Assembly: GCA_045613865.1 (NCBI GenBank) | Contig: JAZLBT010000013.1 | Coordinates: 26,846-90,845 of the forward strand | Direction: 5' to 3' | Length of the DNA stretch: 64,000 bases | Source of the DNA: Candidatus Spyradenecus sp. | GTDB lineage: Bacteria > Verrucomicrobiota > Kiritimatiellia > RFP12 > DVOR01 | In this document: positions 29,118 to 45,241 of the stretch, in pieces | Numbering within the stretch: the stretch's first letter is position 1 | Layout of the letters: each line of letters starts with the position of its first letter | The notes under the pieces: model-generated | What the model was told of the DNA's origin: nothing | Seen by the model: the letters and a program-made list of their open reading frames with translations, nothing else | The model's database searches: none | Program-made: the position numbers and the translations under genes

Positions 29118-30518
29118 CTACTTACTTGTTCCCAAGATTGTTGCAATTCGTTGAGGACTTGGCCGCCAATAAAGCTTCTTCGGCGTATGAATAACAGCAT
29201 TGCTCTCACGATGATAGAGCACGCCATCCTTAGAGTAAAACATTGGATTCGATTGATGACACGTAATATACATCAAATTCGGGAACTGCTCGAAAAATCC
29301 ATTTGGAATCACGGTAACATGTGCTGGCAAAACAATTGCTGTTACCCCTGGCACCTCTACCTCGGGTGTAATCAACGATGCCTCATCATCATAAACAACA
29401 ACCCCTTGATGATACGGAGAAAGAGTCTTAACAGTGGAATGATTTTGAATCGACTCCCACTGCCATTTTGCTTGATAATCCGCAACCACTTGCTTCGTTG
29501 ACGAAACGAGATAATACCCAACACCCGCCAACGCAACAAGTGCCGAAGCAAGTCCCATTGCCTTGACAGCCACTCCCATTCGACGGCGACGCGCCACTTT
29601 CTTCGCATAGGCAGGCAAGTTCAAAATCCACAAGATGATTTCGCGCATCGATTGCCAACGTTCCTCTGGATTCTTACGAATGCAACGTTCAATCAAAATA
29701 TCCCATCCTGGATTTAACCCCATGCTTGAAGGTCGCTTCCACATTCCAACAGGAAACGTTCCCGTCAACATACGACACATCATCACACCAAAAGCGTAAA
29801 TATCCACAGCAGGAGTGAGAACGGCCTTCGGATCCCACTGTTCGGGCGCCATATAATCCGGCGTTCCACGAACCGCATCATCGGTTAATGTCGAATCAAT
29901 TGCTGCAGCCGCACGTGCGATACCAAAGTCCGTCACAACGGCATGGCCATCGTCTCGAATCAACACATTTCCCGGCTTCAAGTCACAGTGAACAATTGCC
30001 CCGTCAACAAAGGTGTGTGCATAGAAAAGTGCACGTGCAACGTCAGAAGCTAGCGTTTGCACAATACGTTCATCTATGCGCCCCTGCTTCGCAAGCACAT
30101 CTTCAAGCGTGAGCGAAATACGCGAAGAGGTTTCTTCCACATTCGTCGTTACACGCGAGAACCAATTCCGTCCCGACAAAACATCTTTATAGCGATCACG
30201 CGGCAAACCCACGTAGTCCATGATAAAGTAAAGACGACCTGTTTCCGGCATTACACCCATTGTGTGTAGCGTCACAATGTTATTATGGCGCAAACGAACG
30301 GTTGTACGGGCTTCTTCAATAAAGTTTTCAATCGCTTCACTTGTATCTGCGCGTTGAATGTCCTCGCGCAAAACCTTCATTGCGAAAAATTCACGCAACA
30401 ATGGATTCACGACTTCATAAACATCACCCATGCCACCTGACGCAAAGTGCTTCACAACGCGATAGTCACCGACAAGCGTCTGAGAGGGAATAATTGAGCT
30501 ATTCTTCGTCTTATTCAT
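29118..30518 (-). CDS. Membrane-anchored Ser/Thr protein kinase.
   Basis: Hanks motifs GGMGDVYEV, HCDLKPGNVLI, DFG and APE. Transmembrane segment near residue ~330. Short extracytoplasmic C-terminus. Confidence 0.85.
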   Translation of the reverse strand: MNKTKNSSIIPSQTLVGDYRVVKHFASGGMGDVYEVVNPLLREFFAMKVLREDIQRADTSEAIENFIEEARTTVRLRHNNIVTLHTMGVMPETGRLYFIMDYVGLPRDRYKDVLSGRNWFSRVTTNVEETSSRISLTLEDVLAKQGRIDERIVQTLASDVARALFYAHTFVDGAIVHCDLKPGNVLIRDDGHAVVTDFGIARAAAAIDSTLTDDAVRGTPDYMAPEQWDPKAVLTPAVDIYAFGVMMCRMLTGTFPVGMWKRPSSMGLNPGWDILIERCIRKNPEERWQSMREIILWILNLPAYAKKVARRRRMGVAVKAMGLASALVALAGVGYYLVSSTKQVVADYQAKWQWESIQNHSTVKTLSPYHQGVVVYDDEASLITPEVEVPGVTAIVLPAHVTVIPNGFFEQFPNLMYITCHQSNPMFYSKDGVLYHRESNAVIHTPKKLYWRPSPQRIATILGTSK

Positions 30519-30537: not shown

Positions 30538-32583
30538 TTACAGCTTTCTACGAATACACTTTGTCGCGTTATCATATTCAAGCTGATATTTCTTGAGCCA
30601 TTCGGTCAAACGACTTGTCGCATAAGGGATTATTATCGCTTCAAGACGATTACGCTTAATCATTCCCTCAATGATTGTCGTTAAAAGAAACTTCTTATTT
30701 GTCTCTGAGAGCAATGAGGCCTCTTCAAAAACAAGACGCTTCATCTTTGTACACTTATCAAGGCAACCATCCAAAAATTCAACATTCATATTCATGATTT
30801 TTGTAGGCATCACAATCTCTTGCTCATCACTCTCATACTCGAAGAGATAGGCCGCCTTTTCTAAAATGCAAACCTTGGCGCCATCAACCTCTTCATAGGC
30901 CGCATTCCAATCGCGATCCCAGAAGCTTGGCAACTTCTTACCAAAGGCCGTACGCGGAATCAACCCACCCTCTGCGTTATACCAAACATCTGCAAGTTCA
31001 GTATCTCTAAACGCATTCCGTTCGTAGGTAATCGCAGTCGTATTCACATAGAGATTTTCAACCTTCATCCCCTTGAATGCTGTTGGTTTAACATTCAACG
31101 TATAACCTGCGATGTGCTGAATATAAATATCCGCATCCTTAGACGTACACTTCAAAAGGTGTAAACACTTTTCATCCGATGCATCAAGCTGCACGTCAAA
31201 AGACGACATCGGTTCATCAAGTTCAATCTGATGGGCAAGCAAGAATGAAGAAAGCGACTGAATAGGATTTGCAGGACGAACCTTCGGCACACTTTCCTTC
31301 TTTGATTTATCAATCAAAAGTGCTTGCATCACCTCAACAACCGCCTCACCAACATTCTCATCCGTTGCATTTGACAACGATGTGGTCGCAACAACTGATG
31401 TTGAGGTCTTCGCTTGCCGTCCAAAATAGGGGACATAACGGCCTTCTTCCGGCGAAGCAAGAGGTTTAAAGAGTGAAAGCGCCCACACGGCATAAAGAAG
31501 AATCGTCAACAAAAATGCACCCGCGCAAATAATACACTTTCGCACCAATGCACGCCAAGGCGTACGATAGCACGATTTCATTCGCATCAATGCGGTATGC
31601 AAATCACCCAATGTCCGATAACGATGCGTAGGATCTGAATCTAAACAGCAATGAAGAATCTTTTCCCACTTCTCATTCAACGGTGGCGTTGATGGCAAAA
31701 GAAATTCACCTGAGAAGATTTCACCCGTGAGCAATTGATACATCGTCACACCCAAGGCATAAAGATCCGTCTGCGGTGAAGGCGGCTCGCCCATACGCAA
31801 CTCAGGCGCCATGTAGTTAATCGTTCCCAACACAAGGTGATAGGCTTGACCATTCGTCTGCATACGCAAAGATAACGAACGATCCTGACCATTCATCATA
31901 CGCTTACGAAGCGAAGCATCGGCAACCTTTGCCACACCAAAATCTGCCACCATCGCATGCCCGTCAGGACGAATCAAAATGTTTGCAGGCTTAATATCAC
32001 GATGAATCACCCCGCTCCCATAATGGTGAGCATAATTCAAAGCCGCAGCAACGTCTGCCACAATTCGACGGACAAGCACTGGATGGATAAGACGATTTAT
32101 ACGATGACCATACGTCACCATGTCTTCAAGCGAAAGCGAAACACACCCACCACTAATCGTGGGCTCGGGAGTCTCGTCCCAACACTCCAAAGGATGTTCG
32201 CCAAATGCAGCATGGAGTAAAGCATTCTTGCGCTTACTCGACATTGCCACATAATCCATCACAAAGTAAAGCGTCTTTGTTGCGGCATCCTGCTCAAGGG
32301 TTTGCACCGAGACAATATTCTCATGACGCAACTGCGCAGTGATACGCGCTTCTTGCAAAAAGCGATCCGCACAATCCTGCCGTTCAATCTCCGTATCCCC
32401 CTGAACAAATAACGTCTTCAATGCAAAACGTTGATGAAGCATCGAATGCTCCACCTCATAAACCGCACCCATGCCACCAACACCAATTTTTCGCAATACG
32501 CGATAAGAGCCAAGCATCATCCCTGCGGTGAGCTCAACATGTTCGTGTAACTGATTAACATTGACGGTCGGTTCGTAACTCAA
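30538..32583 (-). CDS. Membrane-anchored Ser/Thr protein kinase with ~300-aa extracytoplasmic C-terminal domain.
   Basis: GVGGMGAVYEV, HRDIKPANILI, DFG and APE. Transmembrane helix AGAFLLTILLYAVWALSLF. Large C-terminal domain of unknown fold. Confidence 0.85.
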   Translation of the reverse strand: MSYEPTVNVNQLHEHVELTAGMMLGSYRVLRKIGVGGMGAVYEVEHSMLHQRFALKTLFVQGDTEIERQDCADRFLQEARITAQLRHENIVSVQTLEQDAATKTLYFVMDYVAMSSKRKNALLHAAFGEHPLECWDETPEPTISGGCVSLSLEDMVTYGHRINRLIHPVLVRRIVADVAAALNYAHHYGSGVIHRDIKPANILIRPDGHAMVADFGVAKVADASLRKRMMNGQDRSLSLRMQTNGQAYHLVLGTINYMAPELRMGEPPSPQTDLYALGVTMYQLLTGEIFSGEFLLPSTPPLNEKWEKILHCCLDSDPTHRYRTLGDLHTALMRMKSCYRTPWRALVRKCIICAGAFLLTILLYAVWALSLFKPLASPEEGRYVPYFGRQAKTSTSVVATTSLSNATDENVGEAVVEVMQALLIDKSKKESVPKVRPANPIQSLSSFLLAHQIELDEPMSSFDVQLDASDEKCLHLLKCTSKDADIYIQHIAGYTLNVKPTAFKGMKVENLYVNTTAITYERNAFRDTELADVWYNAEGGLIPRTAFGKKLPSFWDRDWNAAYEEVDGAKVCILEKAAYLFEYESDEQEIVMPTKIMNMNVEFLDGCLDKCTKMKRLVFEEASLLSETNKKFLLTTIIEGMIKRNRLEAIIIPYATSRLTEWLKKYQLEYDNATKCIRRKL

Positions 32584-34275
32584 AATCGAAATTCCTTAAT
32601 GGGGGATTGGAAACAACATAATATTATCATAATATATATATTAATGTCCAACGTTTTTTCATATATATCAGTCTCCAACGTTTTTCACATAGACATAGAC
32701 GTAACATAGAGAAAGAAAAATCTTCCAAAGCCCTCATTCATTCTCCAAAAAATCCCATCCAAAAAGAGGAAAATACTCCTTCATCCTTTACTCTTTTACC
32801 CCTACTTTTAACACAGTTTTGAACGCTAAGAAAAAAGCAACACTCTACGACGCATAGGAATACATTAACCTATTCAACTTAAATGAGATAACGTAAATTA
32901 AAGAAGCCCTTTCTCTACTACCGCTTCATCTTGTTGATAACTTGTTCATAAACCTCCATTTCAATCCCTATTGTATCAGTTTAACGAGTTTTATACTATG
33001 AGGTTTTAGGCGGAATCATTTTTTTGTAGGACATTTTTTACGAGTGCGAAATAGTACATTCTGAATAAGTTTGTACTATTCTTTTTTATGGTGAATAAAT
33101 TGTTGAAATAAAGTATTGCTAGTCGAATCTTTGCGGCACGATTGGTGGTAGTACAAATGGTTGAAAAATTGATACCTATTGATTTGAAGATCAAAGCAAT
33201 AGGGTTTGACGCTCAAACCAAAGGGTTTGACCTTCAAATCAATAGGTATTAATTCTTCATTATTCCGCACTATATTTGCCGAGCCATAACTTATACATTT
33301 ATAATAACTTATCTTGAGTATTTTATGGCCAGCAATTTTAAGCTTAAAATCAGTACAATTTTTTTGGGGGCCAACACTTTTAAGGGGAAAATGACAAGCG
33401 GGGAAAATTCTTAAATAGTACAATTTTTGGGCGGGGACTTTTTAGACCTGTTTAGAAAATTCTAGAAAATAGTACAAAGCCCTGAAGAACTGAAACAATA
33501 GGGTTTGATTTTACCTCCTAACACGTCTCTCTATAGATCTCACAACAGATTGTAAAATAAAGAACTTATTCCATGTGTTAATAATTATTCAAAAAAAGCA
33601 GTCTTACGCCTCCCAATCTCAATCTAGCCAACGAAATAAATGATAATTTCCCCTTTCTCCCACGACAAATCTTCCAAGGAAATTAGAATAAAGATAACTT
33701 TTTTATCCATTCATTTCTCATCTCCATCCATTATGACACATCGTCACTTTTCCTAAACAAATATTACAGAACATTTTATGCAACGAAATATTTTTTAAGA
33801 ACTGTAAGAATTTCTCTTGACTCTCTTTCGCTCAATTTGATACCATGCGTCTACCTTTTACCCAATCGACAGGAATAGTACCCGGCAGGGCCGCGTTTTT
33901 ACGCAAACCCGTAAGGCCCGGCGAAGCATCCTTATGAGTGTCGTTTTGATGCGCACGAGTTCGACTAAGGTAAAAGGTTATTTTTTTCTACGCACTTCTT
34001 CTGCGTTATTTCACCTATTGAATTGCCCAATTGTAATTCACCCCTTCCCCCTCATACTCCAAACAATACAGTTTCTAACGCGTTGATATTTCTAGCGTAA
34101 GAAAATTCCTCCGCATTGTTTTGCGACTTTTGCGATTTAAATTTTCAATTATGGCCATTTAAGGTTGTAGAGGGGCAACTTTCTTATTTGCGTGTTGTTT
34201 ATATTTATGGTATAATTTAAAGCAATTTGAATATGAAGGAGATTGCATTGGCGTCTCTTTGAAGGAGTATTATTT
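32584..34275. promoter_or_regulatory. 1.7-kb AT-rich ORF-free intergenic island carrying several short-repeat families. Candidate divergent regulatory region, replication origin or ncRNA locus.
   Basis: The six-frame track shows no ORF longer than 60 aa. It lies between a 14-gene minus-strand array and a >13-gene plus-strand array. The repeats are detailed in the findings. Confidence 0.6.
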
Positions 34276-36699
34276 ATGCGCGTAGCATTAAGTTGGTTAA
34301 ACGAATTTGTTGATTTACATGACCAAACCGTTCAGAGCGTTTCGGATTTATTGACGTTTTCTGGTGTTGAAGTTGAAGCAATTGAGAATACTGGCACGGT
34401 TTTAGATGAATATTTTGTCGTTGGCGAAGTGCTCGAATGTGATGCGCATCCTGATTCGGATCACTTGCATGTGTGCAAGGTTTCTGATGGTAAAGATGTT
34501 TTACAGGTTGTGTGTGGTGCACCGAATGTTCGCGTGGGTGTCAAGGCTCCGCTTGCACGTATTGGCGCAGTAATGCCTGGGCCGGAAGGTTTTAAGATTA
34601 AGAAGGGCAAACTCCGTGGCGTTGAGAGCTTTGGCATGCTTTGCTCGAAGGATGAGCTTGGTCTCGGTGGCGCACATGATGGCATTTGGGAATTGCCGGA
34701 AGAGGCAAAGGCTGGCGAAAGCGTTCAGCAGTTCATGCCTGAGGCCGATACGATTTATGATTTAGAAATTACGTGGAATCGTCCGGACTGTTTGTCGGTG
34801 GTGGGTATTGCACGTGAATTGGCGGCATTGTTGGATCGTCCGCTCAAGTTGCCTGAAGTTGACTTTAACGAAGAAGGTCCGAGCGTCAAGGATGAAGCAC
34901 GTGTAATCGTTGAAGATTCGGAACTTTGCCCGCGTTACACAGCACGTGTTTTGAAGCAGCTTGACCCGAAGGCGCCTACACCGGATTGGATGGCGCGTCG
35001 CCTTGAACAGTGTGGCATGCGTAGTCTTGGCCTCGCGGTTGACGTGACGAATTATGTGATGTTGGAATTGGGCCAACCGTTGCATGCGTTTGACCATACA
35101 ACGTTGACGGATTCGACGATTATCGTTCGCCGTGCAAAGGATGGCGAAGAGATGCGTACGTTGGATGGCGTTGATCGTACACTTGATGAGTCGATGCTCG
35201 TGATTGCAGATTCTACGCGCGCTACGGCGATTGCGGGTATCATGGGTGGCGAAGAGACTGAAATTGCAGATGGTGCAACTGGTACGATTTTGTTGGAATC
35301 GGCATTGTTTGATGCAGCATCGGTGAAGTTCACTGCGACAAAGTTGGGGATTTCTTCGGAATCTTCGTATCGTTATGCTCGTGGTGTTGATCGCGATTTG
35401 GCAGATTTTGCAAGCCGTCGCGCTGCCTCGTTGCTCGCTCAGTATGGCGGAGCGGTTGTTTGCCGTGGCGTGATTGACGCTGATGCACGTGATACGCGTC
35501 CGATTGACGTGAAGTTAGAATATAAGCGTGTGAGCGATGTGATTGGCGTTGAAGTTGCGCCAAAGCGTGTTGATGCAATTTTGACATCGCTCGGCATCAA
35601 GAAGGTTTCGAGCCATGACACGTATGCAACATTCCGTAGCCCGTCTTGGCGTTATGATATTTCGTTGCCGGCAGATTTGATTGAAGAAGTGACGCGTATG
35701 AATGGCTTGGATGCTATTCCGACGCAGCTCCCGACGTTGGCCGCAGTCTCGCAGTTGCCGGAAGATTCCTTCCGCACGAAGAAGGCGGTTCGCCACGCAT
35801 TGTTGGCATTGGGCTTCACTGAAGCTATGCACTATTCGTTCCTCTCAAAGGCCGAATTGGATGCGTTTGATCCAACGGTCACCAATCGTCTTGTGATTCC
35901 TAATCCTGTTTCGGCAGATTATGGCATTTTGCGTGATAGCTTATTGCCGCAGATGATTGGTTCGTTGGGTCGTAATGCTGCACGTCAGATTGAATGTTGC
36001 GCACTTTTCGAAATTGGTCGCGTTTTCGCAGTTGATGCAAAGACGAACGCACCGACGGAATCGGATCGTGTTTCGTTTGGTATTATGGGTCCGTTTGGTC
36101 GTGATGCGCTTTCGCGCCGCAAGCCGTTGCGTGACGAAGAGGCTATGCTTTGGTTGAAGGGCGCCGTGGAATCGTTGTGCGAACGTCTTCATGCGCCGCG
36201 TTTTTCCTTCTATCCCATTCAGCACCCCGCGTTTGCAAAGGGTTATGCTGCGGAAATTTGCATCGGCCGTAAGCGCGTTGGTTTGATTGGTGCTGCAAGT
36301 GCAGAGATTCGCCATCGTTATCGTTTGAATACGCCGATGGTGGTGGCAGAAATTGATGTTGAGCAGTTGACGAAGGGCTTGGATGCGTTGCCTCGTTTAA
36401 AGCCGGTGCCGCAGTTCCCCGCAAGCCGTAAGGATATTGCCTTTATCGCGCCCTCCACGTTGACGCACGAAACAATTGTCAAGACCATTCGTAAGCATGC
36501 CCCAGCTGAGTTGAGTGATGTTGCACTCTTTGACATCTTCACCTCTAAGCAAATGGCCGATGGCACGCGCTCGATGGGTTATACATTAGAATTCCGCTCT
36601 GCAGAACGCACGTTGAAGGATGCAGAAGTGAATGCTGCTTTCGCAAAGATTGTTGCCGCGCTTCATGACGAGCTCGGCGTCGAGATTCGCGAAGCATAA
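34276..36699 (+). CDS. pheT: Phenylalanine--tRNA ligase beta subunit.
   Basis: Canonical N-terminus MRVALSWLNEF with AGGAG RBS 8 nt upstream (the track start at 34243 is too early). tRNA-binding, B3/4, B5 and C-terminal FDX-ACB regions are recognisable. Confidence 0.9.
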   Translation: MRVALSWLNEFVDLHDQTVQSVSDLLTFSGVEVEAIENTGTVLDEYFVVGEVLECDAHPDSDHLHVCKVSDGKDVLQVVCGAPNVRVGVKAPLARIGAVMPGPEGFKIKKGKLRGVESFGMLCSKDELGLGGAHDGIWELPEEAKAGESVQQFMPEADTIYDLEITWNRPDCLSVVGIARELAALLDRPLKLPEVDFNEEGPSVKDEARVIVEDSELCPRYTARVLKQLDPKAPTPDWMARRLEQCGMRSLGLAVDVTNYVMLELGQPLHAFDHTTLTDSTIIVRRAKDGEEMRTLDGVDRTLDESMLVIADSTRATAIAGIMGGEETEIADGATGTILLESALFDAASVKFTATKLGISSESSYRYARGVDRDLADFASRRAASLLAQYGGAVVCRGVIDADARDTRPIDVKLEYKRVSDVIGVEVAPKRVDAILTSLGIKKVSSHDTYATFRSPSWRYDISLPADLIEEVTRMNGLDAIPTQLPTLAAVSQLPEDSFRTKKAVRHALLALGFTEAMHYSFLSKAELDAFDPTVTNRLVIPNPVSADYGILRDSLLPQMIGSLGRNAARQIECCALFEIGRVFAVDAKTNAPTESDRVSFGIMGPFGRDALSRRKPLRDEEAMLWLKGAVESLCERLHAPRFSFYPIQHPAFAKGYAAEICIGRKRVGLIGAASAEIRHRYRLNTPMVVAEIDVEQLTKGLDALPRLKPVPQFPASRKDIAFIAPSTLTHETIVKTIRKHAPAELSDVALFDIFTSKQMADGTRSMGYTLEFRSAERTLKDAEVNAAFAKIVAALHDELGVEIREA

Positions 36700-36955
36700 T
36701 TGTAAAGGATTTGCGACACTGTCGCATCAGGAAGTGGACCCTGTCCTAAACGCGAATGGGCTGAATTTTCTCGAGCCTACGATTTTTTAGGATGGACCGA
36801 CTCGCCTTAAACAATTGGCACGCATATGCGTTGCGTACCGGCGGATGAGGCTTAGGACTGTCACTTGGACGCTTAGGGCTCCGAGGAACATGCAATACGT
36901 CTGGATGGGGTTTTTATTTTAGGTTTGAGCTTGGCTTAAGAGAGAGAGGTTAAGA

Positions 36956-37939
36956 ATGAAAAACTGGATGATGAGTCTTCTTCTCGTATGTCTTACCACT
37001 GCACTGCATGCAGCGGGAGCAAGTGATGTCGCCAAAAATATCTTTGGCAGTCGTGAGGCTGAGAAAAAGAACATTGAAAAGGGTGCAATCTTTATTGATG
37101 GCAACTTTATTCCTGCTCCTTATACACTCAAGCGTGAGGGCAACCTCATTCTTGTAAATGACAGGGTTGCTGCACGTTTCTTGGTTGATGACAAGGAAGA
37201 TGAGGCAGAAGGTGAAGATTCGCCCGAACTTCAAGATTCTGCCACACCCGCACGTCGTCAGTCTGCACGTGATGCTGAACAAGAGAAGCGTCTTAAGGCC
37301 GAAGAATTCCGCAAGAAGGGAATGAAGGGTGGCTCTCTCGCAGACAAGGCAAAGGCAAGAGAAAAAGCAAAGGCACCCAAGCCAAAGGCTGAATTCAATC
37401 GTGAAGCCTCTTCTTCGGGTGGTAATGGTCTCTTTGAAGAAGCCGATTATACTTATACCCCACCTTCCAAGCCTGAACCAAAGGCTGTTCCTTACATTCG
37501 CCCTGCAGCAAAGAAGTCGTTGAAGGAAATCGTTGCAGAACGTGATGCTATTGACGCAGCAAAGCGTGTCGATACCGCCGCTCTTGCTGCAGATGAAGCC
37601 TTTAAGGCCTTGGATGAAGAAGAAGTCGCACGTTATCGTAAGTCCTTGGATGCACGTTTAGCCAAAATTGAAGAAGCACTCCAAAAGGATGCTCTCGTCT
37701 TCTTCATTTCAACGAACATGAATATGAAGCTTGAAGGTCGCAAAACAATGTATAAGTTTGTTGCCAACTTTGAAAAGGATGCGAAGGGTAAGGCTGACGC
37801 ATTTGTAAAGGAATGGCCGGATCTTCCCAAGGCTTACTTAAAGCGCATCCACACCAATCGTTCGACAAATCTCAAGCAGATGAAGACCTTGATTGCGCGT
37901 GTCACGCGCGAATTAAAGGCTGCGAAGAAGGATGAGTAA
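36956..37939 (+). CDS. Secreted Lys/Ala/Glu-rich hypothetical protein, first gene of the Mla-like operon.
   Basis: Signal peptide MKNWMMSLLLVCLTTALHAAGA. Low-complexity charged protein. Stop lies 5 nt before the next gene. Confidence 0.5.
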   Translation: MKNWMMSLLLVCLTTALHAAGASDVAKNIFGSREAEKKNIEKGAIFIDGNFIPAPYTLKREGNLILVNDRVAARFLVDDKEDEAEGEDSPELQDSATPARRQSARDAEQEKRLKAEEFRKKGMKGGSLADKAKAREKAKAPKPKAEFNREASSSGGNGLFEEADYTYTPPSKPEPKAVPYIRPAAKKSLKEIVAERDAIDAAKRVDTAALAADEAFKALDEEEVARYRKSLDARLAKIEEALQKDALVFFISTNMNMKLEGRKTMYKFVANFEKDAKGKADAFVKEWPDLPKAYLKRIHTNRSTNLKQMKTLIARVTRELKAAKKDE

Positions 37940-37944
37940 TCACC

Positions 37945-39048
37945 TTGGAGGTCATTAACGTGGCAACGCGTACCGATCTACAGCTACCTGCGCTTCTCAC
38001 ACAGGCGCAGGTAGTATTGTTTTATAAAGACGCGTTAAAAGCGATTTCTAAAAGTGATGTAAAAGACATTTATCTCGACGCGTCAAGTGTTGAACAGGCC
38101 GATGGCACGGGGATTGCATTTTTGGGATATCTCCGCGCATTTGCGCGTCGCCATGAGAAAAATTGTCACATTCTTTCCCTCGCAGCGCATCATCAGCGAC
38201 AGCTCGATCTTTATGAAGCGGCACAAGCCACACATTCAGAAGAAAGTAAGACCAAGGACAAATCAAATTGTATCGTACGTATAGGTTCTGCGATTTGTCA
38301 AATTCTTGATCAGCTTTGTCGCATCATTGCTTATGTTGGCGAATTAATTTATGATCTCGCCACCCTTTATGCAGGCCATTTTCGTTGGCGAGAATGTAAG
38401 GAAGCCTTCTATCGCGCGGGGGTACAAGCTGTACCAGTTGTAATGTTAATTGGTTTTTTGCTTGGTCTTATTCTCGCGTTTCAGTCTGCGATGCCACTTA
38501 AGATGTTTGGCGCAGAAGGTTTTGTCGGCGGACTTGTTGGCATTGCTCTTGTACGTGAGTTAGGTCTCATCATTACAGCAATTTTAATGGCAGGACGAAG
38601 CGGTTCTGCCTTTGCCGCTGAACTCGGCACAATGAAGGTGAATGAAGAAATTGATGCGCTCTCAACAATGGGATTAAGACCTGTGCGCTTTTTAGCATTG
38701 CCACGCGTTCTTGCAGGTACGTTAGCGCTTCCCCTACTCTCGCTTTTTGCTTCTTTTGCAGGGCTTATCGGCGGCTGGGTTGTTATGCATATTCTCGGCT
38801 TTTCAACAACGTATTACCTTGACCAATTGACAGCATTTGTTAGCTTTGGAGATCTTGTTGGTAGTCTTTGCAAAGCTATTGTTTTCGGATTTACTGTCTC
38901 TGCGGTTGGATGTCGTTGTGGGCTTCAAGCCGGAAGTGATGCTGGCGCTGTTGGAACCGCCACAACGTCCGCAGTCGTAACAAGTATTATTCTTGTTGCA
39001 GCACTTGAGGGCATCTTCTCTGTTCTCTTCTATGCGATGGGGTGGTAA
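37945..39048 (+). CDS. mlaE: STAS (MlaB-like) domain fused to an MlaE-type ABC transporter permease.
   Basis: N-terminal ~100 aa have an anti-sigma-antagonist/STAS pattern. The remainder is a 5-TM MlaE-like permease. The probable real start is GTG 37960, after GGAGG. Confidence 0.7.
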   Translation: MEVINVATRTDLQLPALLTQAQVVLFYKDALKAISKSDVKDIYLDASSVEQADGTGIAFLGYLRAFARRHEKNCHILSLAAHHQRQLDLYEAAQATHSEESKTKDKSNCIVRIGSAICQILDQLCRIIAYVGELIYDLATLYAGHFRWRECKEAFYRAGVQAVPVVMLIGFLLGLILAFQSAMPLKMFGAEGFVGGLVGIALVRELGLIITAILMAGRSGSAFAAELGTMKVNEEIDALSTMGLRPVRFLALPRVLAGTLALPLLSLFASFAGLIGGWVVMHILGFSTTYYLDQLTAFVSFGDLVGSLCKAIVFGFTVSAVGCRCGLQAGSDAGAVGTATTSAVVTSIILVAALEGIFSVLFYAMGW

Positions 39049-39830
39049 CAATGAAGCGACCTCCCGCCATTCGCTGTGAACATGTCGCAACAGGTTATCT
39101 TGACCGTCCATTGATGGGAGATGTCAATTTCGATATCCACGCAGGTGAAATCGCTTTTATCCTCGGCAGTTCTGGCTGTGGGAAGTCGACACTCGTTAAA
39201 CATATCATTGGACAGCAGCCTCTTCTTGGTGGAGAGATTTATATTCACGGCGAAGCGCTCTCCACTGCCAGTGGTGATTCGCTTGAGCGTATTTTACGTT
39301 CTTTTGGTGTGATGTATCAAAGTGGTGCACTTTTTGGAAATTTAACATTGCTTGAGAATGTTATGTTGCCGCTAGAGGAGTTTTCGGGGCTCCCTCAAGA
39401 TCTATGCAAGGCAACCGCTCAACTTAAATTACGCCAAGTGGGGCTCTTAGATTATTGCAATGCTATGCCAGCGGATATTTCTGGAGGCATGAAAAAACGT
39501 GCAGCAATCGCACGTGCAATGGCACTTGAGCCAAGCATTCTCTTCCTTGACGAACCAAGCGCAGGGCTTGACCCCATTACCTCGGCAAATATTGATGCGC
39601 TTATTTATCAGCTCTCTCGCGAGCTTGGGATGACAATTGTTATTGTTTCACACGAGCTTGCAAGCATTGAAGCGATTGCAGATCGCGCCATCTTTCTTGA
39701 TCGCAAGGCAAATGGTGTGCTCGCGCAAGGAACGCCGAACGAATTAAAACAACTTTCCCAACTCCCACTTATTTATAACTTCTTTAATCGCTGTGCAAGC
39801 GAACATGAGAAAGGACTCCCTCATGCGTAA
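39042..39830 (+). CDS. mlaF: ABC transporter ATP-binding protein, MlaF-like.
   Basis: Walker A GSSGCGKST, signature LSGGMKKR, Walker B LFLDEPSAGLD, and H-loop. Alternative start at 39051. Confidence 0.85.
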   Translation: MVTMKRPPAIRCEHVATGYLDRPLMGDVNFDIHAGEIAFILGSSGCGKSTLVKHIIGQQPLLGGEIYIHGEALSTASGDSLERILRSFGVMYQSGALFGNLTLLENVMLPLEEFSGLPQDLCKATAQLKLRQVGLLDYCNAMPADISGGMKKRAAIARAMALEPSILFLDEPSAGLDPITSANIDALIYQLSRELGMTIVIVSHELASIEAIADRAIFLDRKANGVLAQGTPNELKQLSQLPLIYNFFNRCASEHEKGLPHA

Positions 39831-40866
39831 AGAAAAACGATATTTTGCAATTGGTGCATTTGTGCTCTCGAGCTTAATGCTTTTAATTCTTGCTGGTATA
39901 CTCTTTGGTGGAGGCGACTTATTCCCCAAAAAATGTTATTTTGAAACCTATTTCAACACCTCTATTCAAGGGTTGGATGTTGGGAGCGCTGTGAAGTTTC
40001 GAGGCGTTTCTGTCGGCAAGGTTGAGTCCATTTCCTTTACACAGCAAATCTATCCTAATCAAACGCTTGATTTCTCAAATACAGAAGCATGTCTATCGTG
40101 TTCCTATGTGCGTATTCTCTGTTCTCTTGACCTCAAAAAATTCCCCAATCTTACGCAAGAACAACTTGAGATGATGAAAACGTTAGGTCTCTCTACAACG
40201 TTATCTATGCAAGGCATTACTGGAGGTATGCTCATCAATCTTGATTTCTTCTCTGAACCCGCGCCACAGCTTTCCTTTGATTGGACACCTGAAGAAGTTT
40301 ATATCCCCTCTCGCCCTACACAACTTGAAAACTTCATCAATGTCGCTGAAAAAATTGCAACGAATATTGAAAAGATTGACTTTTCAAGTACAATTGATTC
40401 AATCACAAAACTCACAGATCAAATTTCATTGTCTATCGAGAAGTCCAATATTCCGCATTTAACAGAATCTTGTCTTTCGCTTGTTACCTCGCTCAATAAT
40501 ATCGCTCAACAAATTAACAATTATATGAATGATGACAATGTAAAAGATATTATTGTCAATCTCAAAGACATTACACAGCATATCGCGAGTATAACATCAA
40601 CTGTCGATAATGAATTACCTACATTCGCCCAATCATCGACGGCAACCATTGTCACTATGCAGGAAAGTCTTTCAAAGCTTAATGAAACCTTAACAACAAT
40701 CTCTACTCTTTTAAAGACTGTTGCAACCGAGGTGGATTTTGGCGATATCTCAAATGAGGTCTCCTCGTCTGTCGGTCACCTCTCTCGTACGCTTTCCGCA
40801 CTTGAAGCATTAATCCATCAAATTCGTGAACGACCTTCACGTTTGCTCATTGATGACAAAGAATAA
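39793..40866 (+). CDS. mlaD: MCE-domain substrate-binding protein, MlaD-like, with extended C-terminal region.
   Basis: Transmembrane anchor, then MCE domain (VKFRGVSVGKVESI). 357 aa against ~180 for canonical MlaD. The start may be 39805 or 39823. Confidence 0.7.
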   Translation: MQANMRKDSLMRKEKRYFAIGAFVLSSLMLLILAGILFGGGDLFPKKCYFETYFNTSIQGLDVGSAVKFRGVSVGKVESISFTQQIYPNQTLDFSNTEACLSCSYVRILCSLDLKKFPNLTQEQLEMMKTLGLSTTLSMQGITGGMLINLDFFSEPAPQLSFDWTPEEVYIPSRPTQLENFINVAEKIATNIEKIDFSSTIDSITKLTDQISLSIEKSNIPHLTESCLSLVTSLNNIAQQINNYMNDDNVKDIIVNLKDITQHIASITSTVDNELPTFAQSSTATIVTMQESLSKLNETLTTISTLLKTVATEVDFGDISNEVSSSVGHLSRTLSALEALIHQIRERPSRLLIDDKE

Positions 40867-40880
40867 AGAAAGGGTTCCCC

Positions 40881-41444
40881 ATGAAAAAGCTTCCTCTCTT
40901 ATTACTTGCATTAACATGCTTCACAGGTTGTTTTTCAAGACCCGAAGCGAAACCTCATTATAGTGTTGGCCTAGAAGAAATCCGCGCACAGGATATTGAA
41001 TTCCCTCAATTTAAAACATTGAAGCTTACCCTTGAAAATGACATTCAGGCGATGTATGCGCCCTATGTATTCCACAACGATGGTCGCGTAACACTCTATA
41101 CTGCGCTCACCTATTATGCTCCGCTTCCTATCGCATTAGAACGCGCAATCAAGGATAATATCGTTCCGACAGCAACCATTGGAGAAGTCCCCCATCTAAA
41201 GCTCACGCTTACAGATTATGCTATCGACTTACGAAAAGAAAAGCCATTTGTTTTTGTTGGTATTAGAAGTAATGCCGCCTATATCACGCATGAAGATGGT
41301 CGCCGAACCCTTCAAACAAAAATTCCAGAGGGTTTACAAACGCTGGTAATAGCTACTGTTGAGCTCCCGATTCACTACACTCCTCAAGATGTGCGTCAAG
41401 CATTTGCACGTGCACTTCTTATCGTTTGCGATTCGCTCTATTAA
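40881..41444 (+). CDS. Lipoprotein, probable ABC-transport auxiliary component (MlaC/PqiC-like position).
   Basis: Lipobox LALTCFTGC. 187 aa. Immediately follows the MCE gene. Confidence 0.45.
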   Translation: MKKLPLLLLALTCFTGCFSRPEAKPHYSVGLEEIRAQDIEFPQFKTLKLTLENDIQAMYAPYVFHNDGRVTLYTALTYYAPLPIALERAIKDNIVPTATIGEVPHLKLTLTDYAIDLRKEKPFVFVGIRSNAAYITHEDGRRTLQTKIPEGLQTLVIATVELPIHYTPQDVRQAFARALLIVCDSLY

Positions 41445-41631
41445 AGTCAATCGTAAACAATATTTCTTCGCACGTATATCGTTTAAATTCACAAGAATTC
41501 AGTTATCCAATCGAATTCTTAAAAGAATGTTTAGAAATTTAGAAATTTTACAAAAAAAGTCTTTTCTTTTTAGATTCTTTTTTGTATAATACGCGCATTA
41601 CAACATTTTTGAGATTATTCAAAAAAAATGC

Positions 41632-41660
41632 TTGTAATGCGAGTGACTCTTTGCTATACT
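41632..41660 (+). promoter_or_regulatory. Sigma70-like promoter for the tRNA cluster.
   Basis: -35 TTGTAA (41632-41637), a 17-nt spacer, -10 TATACT (41655-41660). The tRNA 5' end is at 41675. Confidence 0.5.
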
Positions 41661-41674
41661 ATATTCCACTTTTT

Positions 41675-41748
41675 GCGGGTGTAGCTCAATGGCAGAGCTC
41701 CAGCCTTCCAAGCTGGCTACGAGGGTTCGATTCCCTTCACCCGCTCCA
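41675..41748 (+). tRNA. tRNA-Gly (anticodon UCC).
   Basis: Cloverleaf folded by hand: acceptor GCGGGTG/CACCCGC, anticodon loop CTTCCAA, T-loop TTCGATT, CCA encoded. Confidence 0.85.
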
Positions 41749-41757
41749 TCCATTCCT

Positions 41758-41842
41758 GCCGGAGTGGTGAAATGGCAGACACAGCAGACTCAAAATCTGC
41801 CGCCCCTAAAGCGTGTGGGTTCGACTCCCACCTCCGGCACCA
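41758..41842 (+). tRNA. tRNA-Leu (anticodon CAA), with long variable arm.
   Basis: Acceptor GCCGGAG/CTCCGGC, anticodon loop CTCAAAA, long variable arm, T-loop TTCGACT, CCA encoded. Confidence 0.85.
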
Positions 41843-41866
41843 TTAATCCCTAGGATGGGGGAGTTC

Positions 41867-41943
41867 GGGCGGTTAACTCAGTTGGTTAGAGTTCCTGATT
41901 TACACTCAGGCTGTCGGTGGTTCGAGTCCGCCACCGCCCACCA
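41867..41943 (+). tRNA. tRNA-Val (anticodon UAC).
   Basis: Acceptor GGGCGGT/ACCGCCC, anticodon loop TTTACAC, T-loop TTCGAGT, CCA encoded. Confidence 0.85.
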
Positions 41944-41961
41944 AATAAAATGATTGATTGG

Positions 41962-41985
41962 CAGCGCATATGCGCTGTTTTTTTG
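41962..41985 (+). terminator. Rho-independent terminator after the tRNA cluster.
   Basis: Palindrome CAGCGCATATGCGCTG followed by TTTTTTT. Confidence 0.75.
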
Positions 41986-42121
41986 TTTTAAGACCTCGTT
42001 TATTTAGTGTCAATGCATTATCGTCTCTAATAAAAAAATGCTAAAAAGTCTTTTGCTATTTTCATTTGTATAAAGTATAATATATAAATACAAAAGATTT
42101 CACGTAAGGAGTCGCCCAAAA

Positions 42122-43114
42122 ATGACAAAGACGAATATTCCAACAAATGAAACAATCAAACATTGTATTTCTATCCTCTCTGCAATTCGTACAGAAGTCA
42201 ATAAAACGCTTATCGGACAAGAGCGTCTTGTTAACGCGCTTCTTATTGCACTCTTAACTGGTGGACATATTTTGTTGGAAGGCGTTCCTGGTTTGGCCAA
42301 AACAACCGCAGTGCGAGCACTTGCCGCAGCATTGGGGCTTGATACAAAACGCATTTCTTTTACTCCAGACTTGCTCCCCGCGGATGTTATTGGTAATTTG
42401 ATTTACAATCAAAAAGATGGCACCTTTACGCCTCACAAAGGACCTGTTTTCTCTAACTTACTCATTGCCGACGAAATTAACCGTGCACCAGCCAAGGTTC
42501 AGTCTGCATTACTCGAAGCCATGCAAGAACGACAAGTCACGCTTGGCGATACGACTTATCAGCTTCCTAAGCCCTTCCTTGTTATGGCAACCCAAAACCC
42601 AATTGAACAAGAAGGCACCTACCCTTTGCCAGAAGCACAAACAGATCGTTTTATGTTAAAGTGTGTCGTTCGCCATCCCTCAATGGATGAAGAACGTCGC
42701 ATTATGGAACGTTTCACACAACCCGTTTTAGTAACGCCTGAATGCTGTGTTACGGCGGAGGAACTAAAGACTTTAACCACGGCAATTCAATCGGTTTACT
42801 GCGATAGTAAAATACAAGACTACATCCTTGCCATTGTATTTGCAACGCGTGAACCCGAAAAAACACCCGCATTAGTTTCTTTAAAGAATGCAATTGCCCT
42901 CGGGGCATCTCCTCGCGCATCCCTTTGTCTTAATCTTGCGGCACGTGCAAATGCGCTTCTTAAAGGTCGCGATTATGCTACACCACAAGACGTTAAAGAT
43001 GTCGCACACGAAGTCTTACGTCACCGCATTCTTCTCACCTATGAAGCAGAAGCAGAAGAACTCACAAGTGAAGAGGTCATCAACAAAATCCTTGACGAGA
43101 TTCCCGTTCCTTAA
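42122..43114 (+). CDS. MoxR-family AAA+ ATPase.
   Basis: Walker A GVPGLAKT, Walker B LIADEINRA, and a MoxR-specific C-terminal region. Confidence 0.85.
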   Translation: MTKTNIPTNETIKHCISILSAIRTEVNKTLIGQERLVNALLIALLTGGHILLEGVPGLAKTTAVRALAAALGLDTKRISFTPDLLPADVIGNLIYNQKDGTFTPHKGPVFSNLLIADEINRAPAKVQSALLEAMQERQVTLGDTTYQLPKPFLVMATQNPIEQEGTYPLPEAQTDRFMLKCVVRHPSMDEERRIMERFTQPVLVTPECCVTAEELKTLTTAIQSVYCDSKIQDYILAIVFATREPEKTPALVSLKNAIALGASPRASLCLNLAARANALLKGRDYATPQDVKDVAHEVLRHRILLTYEAEAEELTSEEVINKILDEIPVP

Positions 43115-43129
43115 GCGTAAAGTTTACCA

Positions 43130-44014
43130 ATGGCAATTGATACGACCGAATTAATGAAGGAAGTAGGACGCATTCGCATCCTCACGCGGCGTCTTCTTGA
43201 TGATCAACTCAGCGGTGATTATCATTCCGTATTCAAAGGTCAAGGTGTTGAATTTGATGAGTCGCGCCCTTATCAACCAGGCGATGACGTTCGCAAGATT
43301 GACTGGAATGTCACCGCACGTACAGGCATCCCTCACGTCAAACGATTTAATGAAGAGCGAGAATTAACAATTCTCTTTGTTGTAGACGTTTCAGGAAGCC
43401 ATAGTTTTGGTACTGGCGGCCACTCAAAAGCAATGCGTGCAGCAGAAATTACAGCACTTCTTGCAATGACTGCCTTACAAAACCAAGACAAGGTTGGGCT
43501 CGTTCTTTTTTCCGATAGGATTGTCAAGACTCTACCTCCAAGAAAAGGAAGAACTGCGGTACAGCGCTTGGTCCGCGAAGTGCTTGCGACGGAAGAAACA
43601 CGTGAAGGGACAAATATCAAAGAAGCGATTCGTTATCTCTCCGCAACACTTCACCGTAAGGCGATCATTTTCTTTGTTTCAGACTTCCGTGATCAAAACT
43701 TTGAACGAGAACTTACCGTGCTCGCTCGACGTCATGACGTAATTGCTTGCCGCATTTTTGATCCTGCAGAGAATCAACTCCCCAATGTCGGGCTTGTTGA
43801 ACTTCTTGATCCTGAAACACATCAAACTATTCTTGTTGACACCTCAAGTCGTTTTGTACGAGATTCCTTTGCAAAAGCTGAGACGGAACGTATTGAACGC
43901 CTTCATAAAACATTTCTCCGCATTGGTGCAGACGTACTTGACGTTTCCACCCAAGCCCCTTATATTAAGGATGTTCGCGACCTCTTTCGCCGTCGTGCTT
44001 TAAGGAGACATTAG
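43130..44014 (+). CDS. DUF58 (vWA-like) protein, MoxR partner.
   Basis: DUF58 pattern (…KGQGVEFDESRPYQPGDD…IDWN…) immediately downstream of moxR. Confidence 0.7.
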   Translation: MAIDTTELMKEVGRIRILTRRLLDDQLSGDYHSVFKGQGVEFDESRPYQPGDDVRKIDWNVTARTGIPHVKRFNEERELTILFVVDVSGSHSFGTGGHSKAMRAAEITALLAMTALQNQDKVGLVLFSDRIVKTLPPRKGRTAVQRLVREVLATEETREGTNIKEAIRYLSATLHRKAIIFFVSDFRDQNFERELTVLARRHDVIACRIFDPAENQLPNVGLVELLDPETHQTILVDTSSRFVRDSFAKAETERIERLHKTFLRIGADVLDVSTQAPYIKDVRDLFRRRALRRH

Positions 44015-44017
44015 TAT

Positions 44018-45241
44018 ATGGATTCTGTTATTGACATTTTCAAAATCGGCATTGGTCCCTCAAGTTCACATACCATGGGCCCTCGACGCGCCGCAGAAAA
44101 GTTCTTACTCAAAGCGCCTCAAGCTGTGCGTTTTCGTGTCACACTCTTTGGGTCTCTTGCCGCCACTGGAAAAGGTCACTTAACAGATAAAGCCATCCTT
44201 GATATCCTCGGAGCTGATCGTACCGAAATCCTCTGGGAACCCTATACTATTCTCCCCTTCCATCCTAATGGCATGCTCTTTGAAGGATTAACGGAGGCGG
44301 GAACATCCTTTATTCAGTGGGAAGTCTATAGTATTGGCGGAGGCTTTTTAAGTGAAGGTCCCGATCAAGAGAAAAAGCCCTCCGTTCACTATCCCTACAC
44401 GACAATGGATGGCGTCTTAAAGTGGTATGGTGAAACAGGTCGCATCTTTTGGGAATATGTCCTCGAATACGAAGGTCAGAGTGTTTTTGAACATCTTCGT
44501 GAAGTTTGGCGCGTGATGCGAGAATCCGTAGAGAGAGGTCTTGAAGCAGAGGGTGTTCTTCCTGGAGGTTTAGGTCTTCAACGCAAGGCAAGTGCATACT
44601 ATCGACGCGCGGTTGGCATGCGCGAAGGTCTTCGTGGACGAGGCCTCCTTTTTGCGTACGCACTTGCTGTATCAGAAGAGAATGCCGCTGGAACGGGCTT
44701 AATTGTTACTGCTCCAACATGTGGTAGCGCGGGTGTCTTGCCTGCCGTCTTATACTACCTTTATCGCCATCATGATGTTCCAGAAAAACGTATAATCCGA
44801 GCACTCGCAACTGCAGGATTAATCGGCGCAATTGTTAAAGAAAATGCTTCCATCAGCGGCGCAGAAGTTGGTTGCCAAGGAGAAATCGGGGTTGCTTGTG
44901 CAATGGCTGCAGCAGCCGTTAACCAAATTTTTGGAGGTTCTCCCAATCAAATCGAATATGCAGCCGAAATGGGACTTGAGCACCATCTCGGTTTAACCTG
45001 TGACCCAGTATGCGGACTTGTTCAAATTCCTTGTATCGAGCGTAATGCGTTTGCTGCTGCTCGTGCAATGGATGCCAATATGTATGCATGTCTCTCTGAT
45101 GGTCGCCACAATATATCCTTTGATAAGGTCGTTCGAACAATGTTAGAAACGGGGCACGATCTTCCAAATCTCTATAAAGAAACCTCTACTGGTGGACTTG
45201 CACGTTTCACACATGAAAACGTATTCGACAAGTTAACCTAA
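44018..45241 (+). CDS. sdaA: L-serine dehydratase, iron-sulfur dependent (single chain).
   Basis: The N-terminus MDSVIDIFKIGIGPSSSHTMGP is diagnostic. Conserved Cys residues further in. Confidence 0.8.
   Translation: MDSVIDIFKIGIGPSSSHTMGPRRAAEKFLLKAPQAVRFRVTLFGSLAATGKGHLTDKAILDILGADRTEILWEPYTILPFHPNGMLFEGLTEAGTSFIQWEVYSIGGGFLSEGPDQEKKPSVHYPYTTMDGVLKWYGETGRIFWEYVLEYEGQSVFEHLREVWRVMRESVERGLEAEGVLPGGLGLQRKASAYYRRAVGMREGLRGRGLLFAYALAVSEENAAGTGLIVTAPTCGSAGVLPAVLYYLYRHHDVPEKRIIRALATAGLIGAIVKENASISGAEVGCQGEIGVACAMAAAAVNQIFGGSPNQIEYAAEMGLEHHLGLTCDPVCGLVQIPCIERNAFAAARAMDANMYACLSDGRHNISFDKVVRTMLETGHDLPNLYKETSTGGLARFTHENVFDKLT

Follow-up and report, generated by a model that had tools for sequence, protein, structure and literature searches.

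A long lineage-specific spacer between the kinase and pheT operons of a Candidatus Spyradenecus genome and its possible mobile-element relic

A long non-coding island between divergent operons

What is the role of a long, repeat-filled and apparently gene-free stretch of DNA at the point where two runs of bacterial genes diverge? In the 64-kb window (the whole stretch of Candidatus Spyradenecus sp. DNA analysed here), such an island occupies positions 32584-34275, between a Ser/Thr kinase gene on the minus strand (30538-32583) and pheT on the plus strand, whose true start is the ATG at 34276. The initial annotation proposed a candidate replication origin or, alternatively, a large divergent promoter region or non-coding RNA (ncRNA) hub. 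The island is real, and across 2.28 Mb of the window and relatives' loci it is the longest stretch devoid of an open frame of at least 130 aa (1641 bp; runner-up, 1115 bp).

The island was said to hold no ORF longer than 60 aa. It contains two mechanical ORFs, both with TTG starts on the minus strand, one of 62 aa (33006-33194; dicodon coding score -0.40) and one of 115 aa (33076-33423; -0.23), and Pfam searches returned no match to either. The best-of-six-frames dicodon score of the island has a mean of -0.13 and a maximum of 0.19, and the real genes average 0.72 (5th percentile 0.43). Thus, the negative or low dicodon scores and the lack of Pfam matches mark the island as non-coding. No tRNA or tmRNA lies within it, and six-frame pieces compared with 81 loci, among them the neighbouring genes of the relatives, revealed no pseudogene remnants (nothing below E = 0.04). 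The island shows no similarity to phages or plasmids, and blastn, nhmmer and tblastn matched it neither to the remainder of the window nor to the fetched loci (3.2 Mb).

The leftward gene run, first counted as 14 genes, comprises 22 ORF-defined genes (2141-32583). A rightward run, for which at least 13 genes had been claimed, does exist; it consists of 11 CDS and 3 tRNAs (34276-46496), after which the strand changes again. The island is also AT-rich as described (34% GC), yet this is usual for intergenic DNA of this genome, where the other gaps have 26-47% GC (mostly 26-39%). The island is unusual for its length, not for its AT content.

Gene order in related genomes and the edge promoters

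The relatives used for comparison have PheT proteins 74-86% identical to that of the window. The right flank (pheT, an unnamed gene, mlaE, mlaF, mlaD and a second unnamed gene) is syntenic in six of six relatives (L001, L003, L005, L008, L203 and L205), with the tRNA cluster downstream of the pheT-mla block seen in L008. Similarity to these six relatives ends at pheT, and most relatives have different genes within ~170 bp upstream of it. On the other side, kinase homologues reach at most 61% identity, and the closest of them adjoins queF/queC across a gap of ~180 bp. A stretch of ~960 bp poor in ORFs upstream of pheT in L205 and L206 was considered as a counterpart of the island and rejected, being unrelated in sequence and having few repeats. 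The best PheT identities were 86% in genomes and 77% in metagenomes; no relative above 86% was found in any collection searched, and no record has the exact PheT sequence. Judged from these comparisons, the island is a lineage-specific spacer located exactly where gene order breaks relative to the relatives.

An identifiable function is limited, as far as sequence conservation indicates, to the outermost ~70-110 bp at either edge, in the form of conserved proximal promoters and leaders. These edge promoters would serve leftward transcription of the kinase operon and rightward transcription of the pheT-mla-tRNA block, with predicted 5' ends at ~32615 and ~34223, respectively. On the left, a promoter-like site of the kinase operon (TGGACA-16-GATAAT, minus strand, 32623-32650) overlaps two tandem 25-nt direct repeats (32634-32685) that are 88% identical with a 27-nt period, and a similar GGACA...AT-rich...TATTAT arrangement occurs in L081 upstream of the 61%-identical kinase. 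On the right, the predicted pheT promoter carries an extended -10 element, TGGTATAAT (34208-34216, plus strand), and a TGnTAnAAT-like element is present at this promoter position in eight relatives. The pheT Shine-Dalgarno sequence GAAGGAG lies at 34261-34267. A 12-nt perfect complement between 32772-32783 and the Shine-Dalgarno region (34260-34271) is compatible with chance (an estimated ~0.1-0.3 occurrences expected) and was discarded.

Signals of a replication origin

A non-canonical chromosomal oriC, with the short repeats acting as initiator-binding sites, would account for several features of this locus: the genes diverge from the island, the island is AT-rich and repeat-dense with a large palindrome, the raw GC skew changes sign at ~34 kb, and the locus is a synteny breakpoint. 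However, the AT content is that of ordinary intergenic DNA, and the relatives have no conserved island. A search for DnaA boxes revealed no cluster, the island containing one one-mismatch TTATCCACA-like box (32932-32940); the whole window has 21 one-mismatch boxes versus 16.3 expected. The initial annotation correctly recorded that no dnaA or dnaN gene is adjacent, and Pfam scans of 49 ORFs found neither gene anywhere in the window. The window also contains no parS site with fewer than two mismatches and no match to the 28-bp XerCD site dif at up to three mismatches.

The cumulative GC skew, which for an origin here should reach its minimum at ~33.3 kb, has just a local minimum at ~34 kb (-4.88); it goes on falling after 40 kb and is down to -6.66 by 64 kb. 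We expect the minimum of the complete genome to the right of the window. The plus-strand GC3 skew is -0.33 in the minus-strand genes on the left, -0.17 in the plus-strand genes on the right and -0.35 in the minus-strand genes on the right. At four-fold degenerate sites, all three gene groups have plus-strand C of 0.22-0.24 and G of 0.13-0.16, and intergenic skew is -0.13 left of the island and -0.05 right of it. The neutral-like segments of the island on either side of a 548-bp module (see below) share the same skew sign. Since C exceeds G on the plus strand on both sides, whatever the gene strand, the inflection of the raw skew reflects the gene-strand switch, and with the gene-strand effect removed there is no polarity switch at the island. 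Thus, DnaA boxes, marker genes, skew and the absence of the island in relatives all contradict the proposed origin, which is largely refuted within the window; that the island is an oriC appears extremely improbable.

Neutral background and an inverted-repeat module

Between the promoter-bearing edges, ~730 bp in three segments match the neutral sites of this replication arm (plus-strand G ~10%, C ~24%). The first segment (32690-32960; A.37, C.24, G.10, T.28) has the composition of four-fold sites in the left minus-strand genes, and the third (33990-34110; A.26, C.29, G.11, T.34) that of four-fold sites in the right plus-strand genes. The second (33510-33850; A.34, C.23, G.09, T.34) is equally G-poor and nearly without structure as plus-strand RNA. 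We propose that two modules of departing composition are embedded in this neutral background.

The larger of them is a repeat-dense module of 548 bp with inverted repeats at its ends (32961-33508). Its composition, with G exceeding C, is unlike that of the flanks and breaks at the module boundaries, and its dicodon scores, at the level of shuffled sequence, leave it without coding capacity. The left arm, TCAATCCCTATTGTATCAGTT (32961-32981, plus strand), is 21 nt long, and the right arm (33488-33508, minus strand; reverse complement TCAAACCCTATTGTTTCAGTT) matches it at 19 of 21 positions; a match as good arose in 2 of 200 shuffles, and the 21-nt repeat is unique in the window. Both ends have a subterminal ATAGTAC-type motif, and further end-like copies (AAaCAAtAGGGTTTGA) are found in the interior, with additional IR-like copies at 33194 and 33215. 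Outward-facing -10-like sequences are present at both ends, TGATACAAT and TGAAACAAT; the former reads leftward on the minus strand of the left arm (32970-32978) as an extended -10-like element, with a predicted 5' end at ~32963. The 6-bp sequence ACCTCC occurs 3-4 nt outside each arm (32952-32957 and 33513-33518), with an estimated chance probability of ~0.04; it is no clean target-site duplication and may be there by chance.

The module interior contains a long near-perfect hairpin or cruciform (33156-33264; 109 nt) with 45-nt arms that are 82% complementary, an apex of GGTTTGA-CGC-TCAAACC and four CAATAGG-type motifs. Its predicted fold is far more stable than that of shuffled sequence (z = -9.1). 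It is followed by the best sigma-70-like match in the island (33276-33305, plus strand; TTGCCG-18-TATAAT, 10 of 12 positions). The idea that the module is one long degenerate palindrome was rejected, as the match of the interior to its reverse complement was equalled by 119 of 500 shuffles; the ends and the hairpin are its only self-complementary parts.

The region 32961-33508 may be a relic left by a non-autonomous element of the transposable or site-specific recombination type. Multiple copies are the hallmark of mobile elements; no other copy of this module or its inverted repeat was found in the window, in viral contigs (0 matches to the 21-nt repeat) or in the fetched loci (3.2 Mb). The hairpin arms likewise gave 0 matches in a metagenome scan, and Pfam searches revealed no gene for a transposase or recombinase in the 30 kb to either side.

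Repeated motifs and possible protein binding

The short repeats reported earlier are genuine. In a conservative test on the highest count of any k-mer, the excess was reached by 2 of 200 shuffles for 8-mers and 1 of 200 for 9-mers. All five exact copies of AATAGTAC in the window fall within 33050-33881, and 6 of the 16 window copies of CAATAGG lie within 32967-34020. Two AATAGTAC copies form an inverted pair (33050-33057 plus, 33073-33080 minus) with centres 22-23 bp, or about two helical turns, apart. Three direct repeat units with the core AAATAGTACAA (33336-33508, plus strand) start 65 and 54 nt from one another, corresponding to ~6 and 5 helical turns, and units 1 and 2 continue into a T-run and then a G-run. 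The T-tract and G-tract strings noted earlier were confirmed at 33358-33436. Copies of AATAGTAC (33874) and CAATAGG (34014) also occur beyond the module, and the motifs thus extend over more of the island than the putative element does.

These arrays raise the possibility that AAATAGTACAA and CAATAGG(G/T) are operator sites for one or two DNA-binding proteins, whose nucleoprotein complex would control internal transcripts, the two divergent operons (kinase and pheT) or both, that is, the regulatory hub of the initial annotation. The confinement of the motifs to the island, the helical spacing of the inverted pair (33050/33073) and of the direct units, and the copies outside the inverted repeats are consistent with such a resident array, and the departure of the module from neutral composition would fit selective constraint. 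Yet the proximal promoters of the flanking operons are conserved in relatives that lack the array, the array itself is conserved in no relative and no regulator gene is adjacent. Thirteen sites over 1 kb are also far above the need of ordinary operators, and we consider this reading rather unlikely.

The pattern TAGTACAA...TAGTACAA, a degenerate 16-base pattern, hit at least 120 scattered, unrelated viral contigs in a chance-like manner, a scan for the CAATAGGGTTTGA pair pattern gave one match inside a 1410-aa ORF that was taken as chance, and a literature search for the motif strings returned primer noise only. Resemblances to TrpR, LexA, hix and lambda arm sites were given no weight.

The same repeats could belong to a DNA inversion switch. 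Invertons, defined as DNA between inverted repeats of 10-40 nt to which an invertase binds, have been reported in Akkermansia, a member of the Verrucomicrobiota (PMC11892184), and the 21-nt repeats, which enclose a segment of 548 bp, fit this definition in length. An invertase encoded elsewhere would then target the 21-nt repeats and flip the 506-bp interior, redirecting the internal promoter or promoters to the kinase operon or to the sRNA/pheT side. In favour of this, the host belongs to the gut bacteria, the segment encloses the island's best sigma-70-like site (33276-33305), and the IR-like copies at 33194 and 33215 are possible alternative partners. However, the 64 kb contain no recombinase detectable by Pfam, for which a trans-acting enzyme could substitute, and no second locus with the same repeat, and the neighbours are housekeeping or kinase genes and not surface-structure genes. 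Flipping would also change little because promoter-like elements point outward at both ends, which makes an inverton quite improbable here. There is a similarly slim chance that the AAATAGTACAA and CAATAGGGTTTGA motifs, the nested GGTTTGA/TCAAACC palindromes and the 21-nt repeats constitute a functioning switch for recombination or phase variation, or else a centromere-like or iteron-like platform. They would then be a resident DNA machine for a Kiritimatiellia DNA-binding protein, with no described relatives, instead of a relic.

A candidate small RNA

The smaller module, ~135 nt long, is GC-rich (52%) and occupies 33853-33987 on the plus strand. It is preceded by a promoter-like site (TTGACT-18-TACCAT, 33817-33846, plus strand) with TG before the -10 element and a predicted start at ~33853. 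A 10-bp stem closes its 5' and 3' ends and is followed by a run of seven T, and it contains one AATAGTAC copy. On the plus strand it folds marginally better than shuffled sequences (z = -1.3 to -1.8). Neither covariance-model nor nhmmer searches of 2.28 Mb of loci from relatives recovered a homologue. As the unit has promoter-like and terminator-like signals of its own, it is a candidate orphan sRNA gene.

A further possibility is that the island consists chiefly of a cluster of unannotated ncRNA genes, encoding the hairpin RNA, the GC-rich RNA of 135 nt and the G-initiated repeats. The strong fold of the hairpin and the signals around the GC-rich patch are in line with this, and divergent RNAs of this lineage do escape the Rfam thresholds, as shown by a 6S candidate that scores only 27.5 bits. 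However, the search of the island against Rfam 15 returned nothing at the gathering score and, at E ≤ 10, plant and animal miRNA-model noise on the hairpin and other noise only. Clear folding beyond shuffles was restricted to the long hairpin, with a weak region at ~34000-34150 (z to -3.4), and both strands lack structure over most of the island. The searches for homologues of the 135-nt unit were likewise negative, and promoter-like and terminator-like sites occur at chance density (8 versus 8.0 expected). Thus, of the proposed promoter region or ncRNA hub, the conserved proximal promoters of both operons and one candidate sRNA gene were retained, whereas the site density and the lack of an Rfam family do not support the remainder, and an ncRNA cluster is decidedly unlikely. 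A CsrB-like GGA-rich RNA on the minus strand was rejected, as GGA counts fit the base composition. Outside the island, the 6S candidate lies at 36735-36915.

Proposed nature of the island and its significance

The island is not a replication origin. Our preferred reading, at a little less than an even chance, is that it is the spacer of a rearrangement junction in which a non-autonomous mobile or recombination element has left a relic. The element may have mediated the rearrangement that joined the two operons or arrived afterwards, and its outward -10-like ends may add transcription into the flanks.

The main value of this result is negative. Divergent gene runs, an AT-rich repeat-filled gap and an inflection of the raw skew form a misleading origin signature, which was produced here by a gene-strand switch and an oversized spacer, and skew at neutral sites distinguishes such a switch from an origin with just 64 kb of sequence. 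If the module is mobile or invertible, no element of this kind would have been described before in this little-studied gut lineage, and the module would mark how gene order was rearranged there. If the 135-nt unit is transcribed, it would represent an orphan sRNA. Several genome copies of TCAAWCCCTATTGTWTCAGTT or of the 548-bp module with flanking duplications would identify a MITE, and a single copy would count against this.

Comparison with known systems

Like a bacterial oriC, the island is an AT-rich, repeat-containing gap between divergent gene runs, but it lacks a DnaA-box cluster, a skew switch at neutral sites, linkage to dnaA or dnaN and conservation in relatives.

Surface-structure genes are the usual neighbours of invertons, an invertase gene is often nearby and both orientations occur in a population. 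The module shares with invertons (fimS and those of Bacteroides and Akkermansia) an intergenic location, inverted repeats in the 10-40-nt range, an internal promoter-like site and a gut-associated host of the PVC group. It differs from them in having no nearby invertase gene, no sister loci sharing the repeat and no surface-structure neighbours.

As in the nucleoprotein platforms of iterons, Tn7 and Mu ends and lambda arm sites, a motif of ~10-11 bp recurs in the island as direct and inverted copies within a few hundred bp, interspersed with another motif and a palindrome. This likeness concerns architecture as generally known and not sequence. The window contains no Rep, transposase or integrase gene, and the spacing of 54-65 bp differs from the 21-23 bp of classic plasmid iterons.

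MITEs such as the ERIC and Correia-type palindromic units differ from the module in that it was seen once, has no clean target-site duplication and has no related transposase or sequence family in the collections searched; its arrays of two motif families are also not typical of bacterial MITEs. Nevertheless, the module resembles them in being small (548 bp), non-coding and intergenic, in its terminal inverted repeats (19/21) with extra subterminal similarity and an internal palindrome, and in a composition unlike that of its flanks, a position at a synteny breakpoint and outward promoter-like ends.

Gene context and coding potential of the island

The island (32584-34275) is a 1692-bp gap between a minus-strand gene for a Ser/Thr protein kinase (30538-32583) and pheT on the plus strand, whose ATG start codon at 34276 is supported by homology. 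It was initially annotated as free of ORFs over 60 aa; mechanical ORF calling does give two, of 62 and 115 aa, both on the minus strand, but both score as non-coding, with negative dicodon coding scores. A Pfam scan of the 115-aa ORF (the sole island ORF scanned) gave no match. The best-of-six-frame dicodon score of the island (mean -0.13, maximum 0.19) was equivalent to that of shuffled sequence (-0.17) and far lower than that of real genes (mean 0.72, 5th percentile 0.43). Across 2.28 Mb comprising the window and the loci of relatives, this is the longest stretch lacking an open frame of at least 130 aa. Its GC content of 34% is the plain intergenic GC of this genome (other gaps 26-47%, mostly 26-39%), and the feature, itself real, is unusual in size alone. 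The second-longest gap in the window (5390-6036, 647 bp, 38% GC) lies between two minus-strand genes, with TGGTATAAT on its minus strand (5686-5694).

The divergent gene runs described in the initial annotation stand with different counts: 22 ORF-defined genes, not 14, run leftward (2141-32583), and the rightward run comprises 11 CDS with three tRNAs and reaches 46496, beyond which the strand alternates. The genes around the island are ordinary housekeeping genes, including miaB-like, ispF, aroB, sirtuin, GH31 glycosidase and three kinase genes on the left, and pheT, mlaEFD, moxR, sdaA, rubrerythrin and exbBD genes on the right. Of the Ser/Thr kinase genes (20665-23097, 29118-30518 and 30538-32583), the last two are neighbouring paralogues, and BspA-type leucine-rich repeats (PF13306) are frequent in homologues of the 681-aa kinase. 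pheS is not adjacent to pheT. Directly 3' of pheT lies a sub-threshold 6S RNA candidate (36735-36915, plus strand) ending in a T-run, which a scan at the gathering threshold overlooked (RF00013; 27.5 bits, the gathering score being 46.4, and E = 8e-4 when 451 nt were searched); at the equivalent position of the distant relative L049 (12491-12669), a 6S match reaches 47.8 bits, above threshold.

Strand asymmetry and the replication-origin hypothesis

The leading proposal of the initial annotation, that the island is a replication origin, is rejected, and we regard it as a very remote prospect. The island has a single DnaA box with one mismatch, with no enrichment of boxes across the window, and no parS or dif sites were found. 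The remark that dnaA and dnaN do not adjoin the island was borne out and extends to the whole window, in which rep, transposase and recombinase genes are likewise missing. Nor is the island conserved among the six relatives compared.

Raw GC skew does switch sign near 34 kb, but the cumulative curve rises for just 6 kb thereafter and then drops far beneath its level at 34 kb (-6.66 versus -4.88), which makes the minimum expected at the island a local one. The decisive step was to separate the effect of gene strand from that of replication. On the left side, third-position GC skew of the plus strand is -0.33 for minus-strand and -0.37 for plus-strand genes, and on the right -0.17 for plus-strand and -0.35 for minus-strand genes. 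At 4-fold sites, C (0.22-0.24) exceeds G (0.13-0.16) on the plus strand in all three gene groups, with A and T swapping with gene strand, and intergenic GC skew is non-positive on both sides of the island. This neutral-site strand asymmetry is very strong across the window, and only pheT clearly departs from it (GC3 skew +0.28). Since neutral-site skew has the same sign on both sides, the replication-associated asymmetry does not flip at the island. Such asymmetry reverses at the origin and terminus, and therefore all of the window seems to belong to a single replication arm. The excess of C over G for either gene orientation points to the minus strand as the leading one over all 64 kb, with the origin past the right end.

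Comparison with related loci

PheT relatives come from MAGs of gut and rumen origin that carry the labels Kiritimatiellia, Lentisphaeraceae or Ca. Spyradenecus. The closest (L008) is 86% identical and the closest in metagenomes 77%, with no identical PheT sequence on record; the closest kinase homologue is 61% identical. The block headed by pheT (34276-41943; pheT, an unknown 327-aa gene, mlaE, mlaF, mlaD and an unknown 187-aa gene) is syntenic in the six relatives compared (L001, L003, L005, L008, L203 and L205), down to 74% PheT identity, and L008 also has, downstream, the cluster of Gly/Leu/Val tRNAs present after this block in the window. Similarity to these relatives stops at the pheT start, and synteny always breaks just upstream, where most relatives have other same-strand genes within about 170 bp. 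The nearest kinase homologue abuts queF/queC across a gap of about 180 bp. On its Logan contig (L081, 1-1654), the small upstream genes called are antisense artefacts, the real genes on the opposite strand being queC (171-956) and an N-terminally extended queF (887-1654).

Stretches of about 960 bp without long ORFs lie directly upstream of pheT in two relatives with 74% PheT identity, L205 (5491-6451) and L206 (5760-6720). They are unrelated in sequence to the island, with 48% GC and few repeats apart from the 14-mer GAAACAATGCTCCG, present twice 480 nt apart. A 1.1-kb ORF-poor stretch of L049 contains a group II intron domain match (5574-5648; RF00029, 41.9 bits) beside two tRNAs.

No part of the island had a match in Rfam at E <= 10, among phages and plasmids, by nhmmer against 3.2 Mb of fetched loci, or when viral contigs and metagenomes were scanned for patterns. 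The most economical account, which we favour tentatively at somewhat less than even probability, is that the island would be a spacer at a lineage-specific rearrangement junction, with conserved promoters at its edges and neutral DNA between them, in which one repeat-dense module bounded by inverted repeats and an orphan sRNA candidate may be embedded.

Organization of the island

At the right edge, pheT has the extended -10 element TGGTATAAT (34208-34216, plus strand), with T-rich sequence and GGAG downstream of it; in eight relatives a TGnTAnAAT-like element aligns here. At the left edge, a promoter-like TGGACA-16-GATAAT site of the kinase gene (32623-32650, minus strand) has a similar arrangement in L081. 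Two 25-nt repeats in tandem with a 27-nt period (32634-32685, ATATATATyArTsTCCAACGTTTTT) overlap this site, perhaps as duplicated promoters or as operator sites. Deep in the island, AATACTCCTTCA (32772-32783) is complementary at all 12 positions to the ribosome-binding region of pheT, TGAAGGAGTATT (34260-34271); this may be due to chance, with about 0.1-0.3 such cases expected by our estimate. TGAAGGAG is present a second time in the pheT leader, at 34234.

The background segments (32690-32960, 33510-33850 and 33990-34110) are G-poor (plus strand G 9-11%, C 23-29%), with the same C over G bias as 4-fold sites. In A/T composition, the left segment resembles minus-strand genes and the right one plus-strand genes. 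They are almost without structure as plus-strand RNA and contain no detectable protein remnants, and we read them as long-resident, neutrally drifting DNA.

The candidate sRNA, module 2 (33853-33987), has 52% GC versus 28-36% in its surroundings. A promoter-like TTGACT-18-(TG)TACCAT precedes it, with a predicted transcription start at about 33853; its 5' and 3' ends pair in a 10-bp stem, after which come seven consecutive T. Its fold z-score is just -1.3 to -1.8 on the plus strand, and a covariance model found no match in 2.28 Mb of relatives' loci. The conserved edge promoters and this single candidate agree in part with the secondary suggestion of a divergent promoter region or ncRNA hub, but the lack of Rfam matches does not, and a cluster of ncRNA genes is unlikely.

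Module 1 (32961-33508) is bounded by 21-nt inverted repeats matching at 19/21 positions, unique in the window and equalled in 2/200 shuffles, with a TT(A/G)TACTAT motif about 30 nt inside each end. G exceeds C within it, opposite to its flanks. Two motif families, AAATAGTACAA and CAATAGG(G/T), have most of their copies here; all five exact AATAGTAC copies in the window, and 6 of 16 CAATAGG copies, fall in the island. Three direct units are spaced by 65 and 54 nt, with a T-run and a G-run after the motif in the first two, and a near-perfect 109-nt hairpin (z = -9.1) has an apex of GGTTTGA/TCAAACC palindromes. That such repeats form a putative resident protein-binding array is a minor possibility. 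Module 1 also contains the island's best sigma-70-like site (33276-33305), and the left arm carries an outward-facing TGATACAAT with the same pattern as the pheT promoter. The length of the inverted repeats is within the definition of invertons (PMC11892184), but the vicinity has no invertase and both ends carry promoter-like elements that point outward; an inverton is improbable. In construction, module 1 resembles a non-autonomous mobile or recombination element, and we read it as a putative one.
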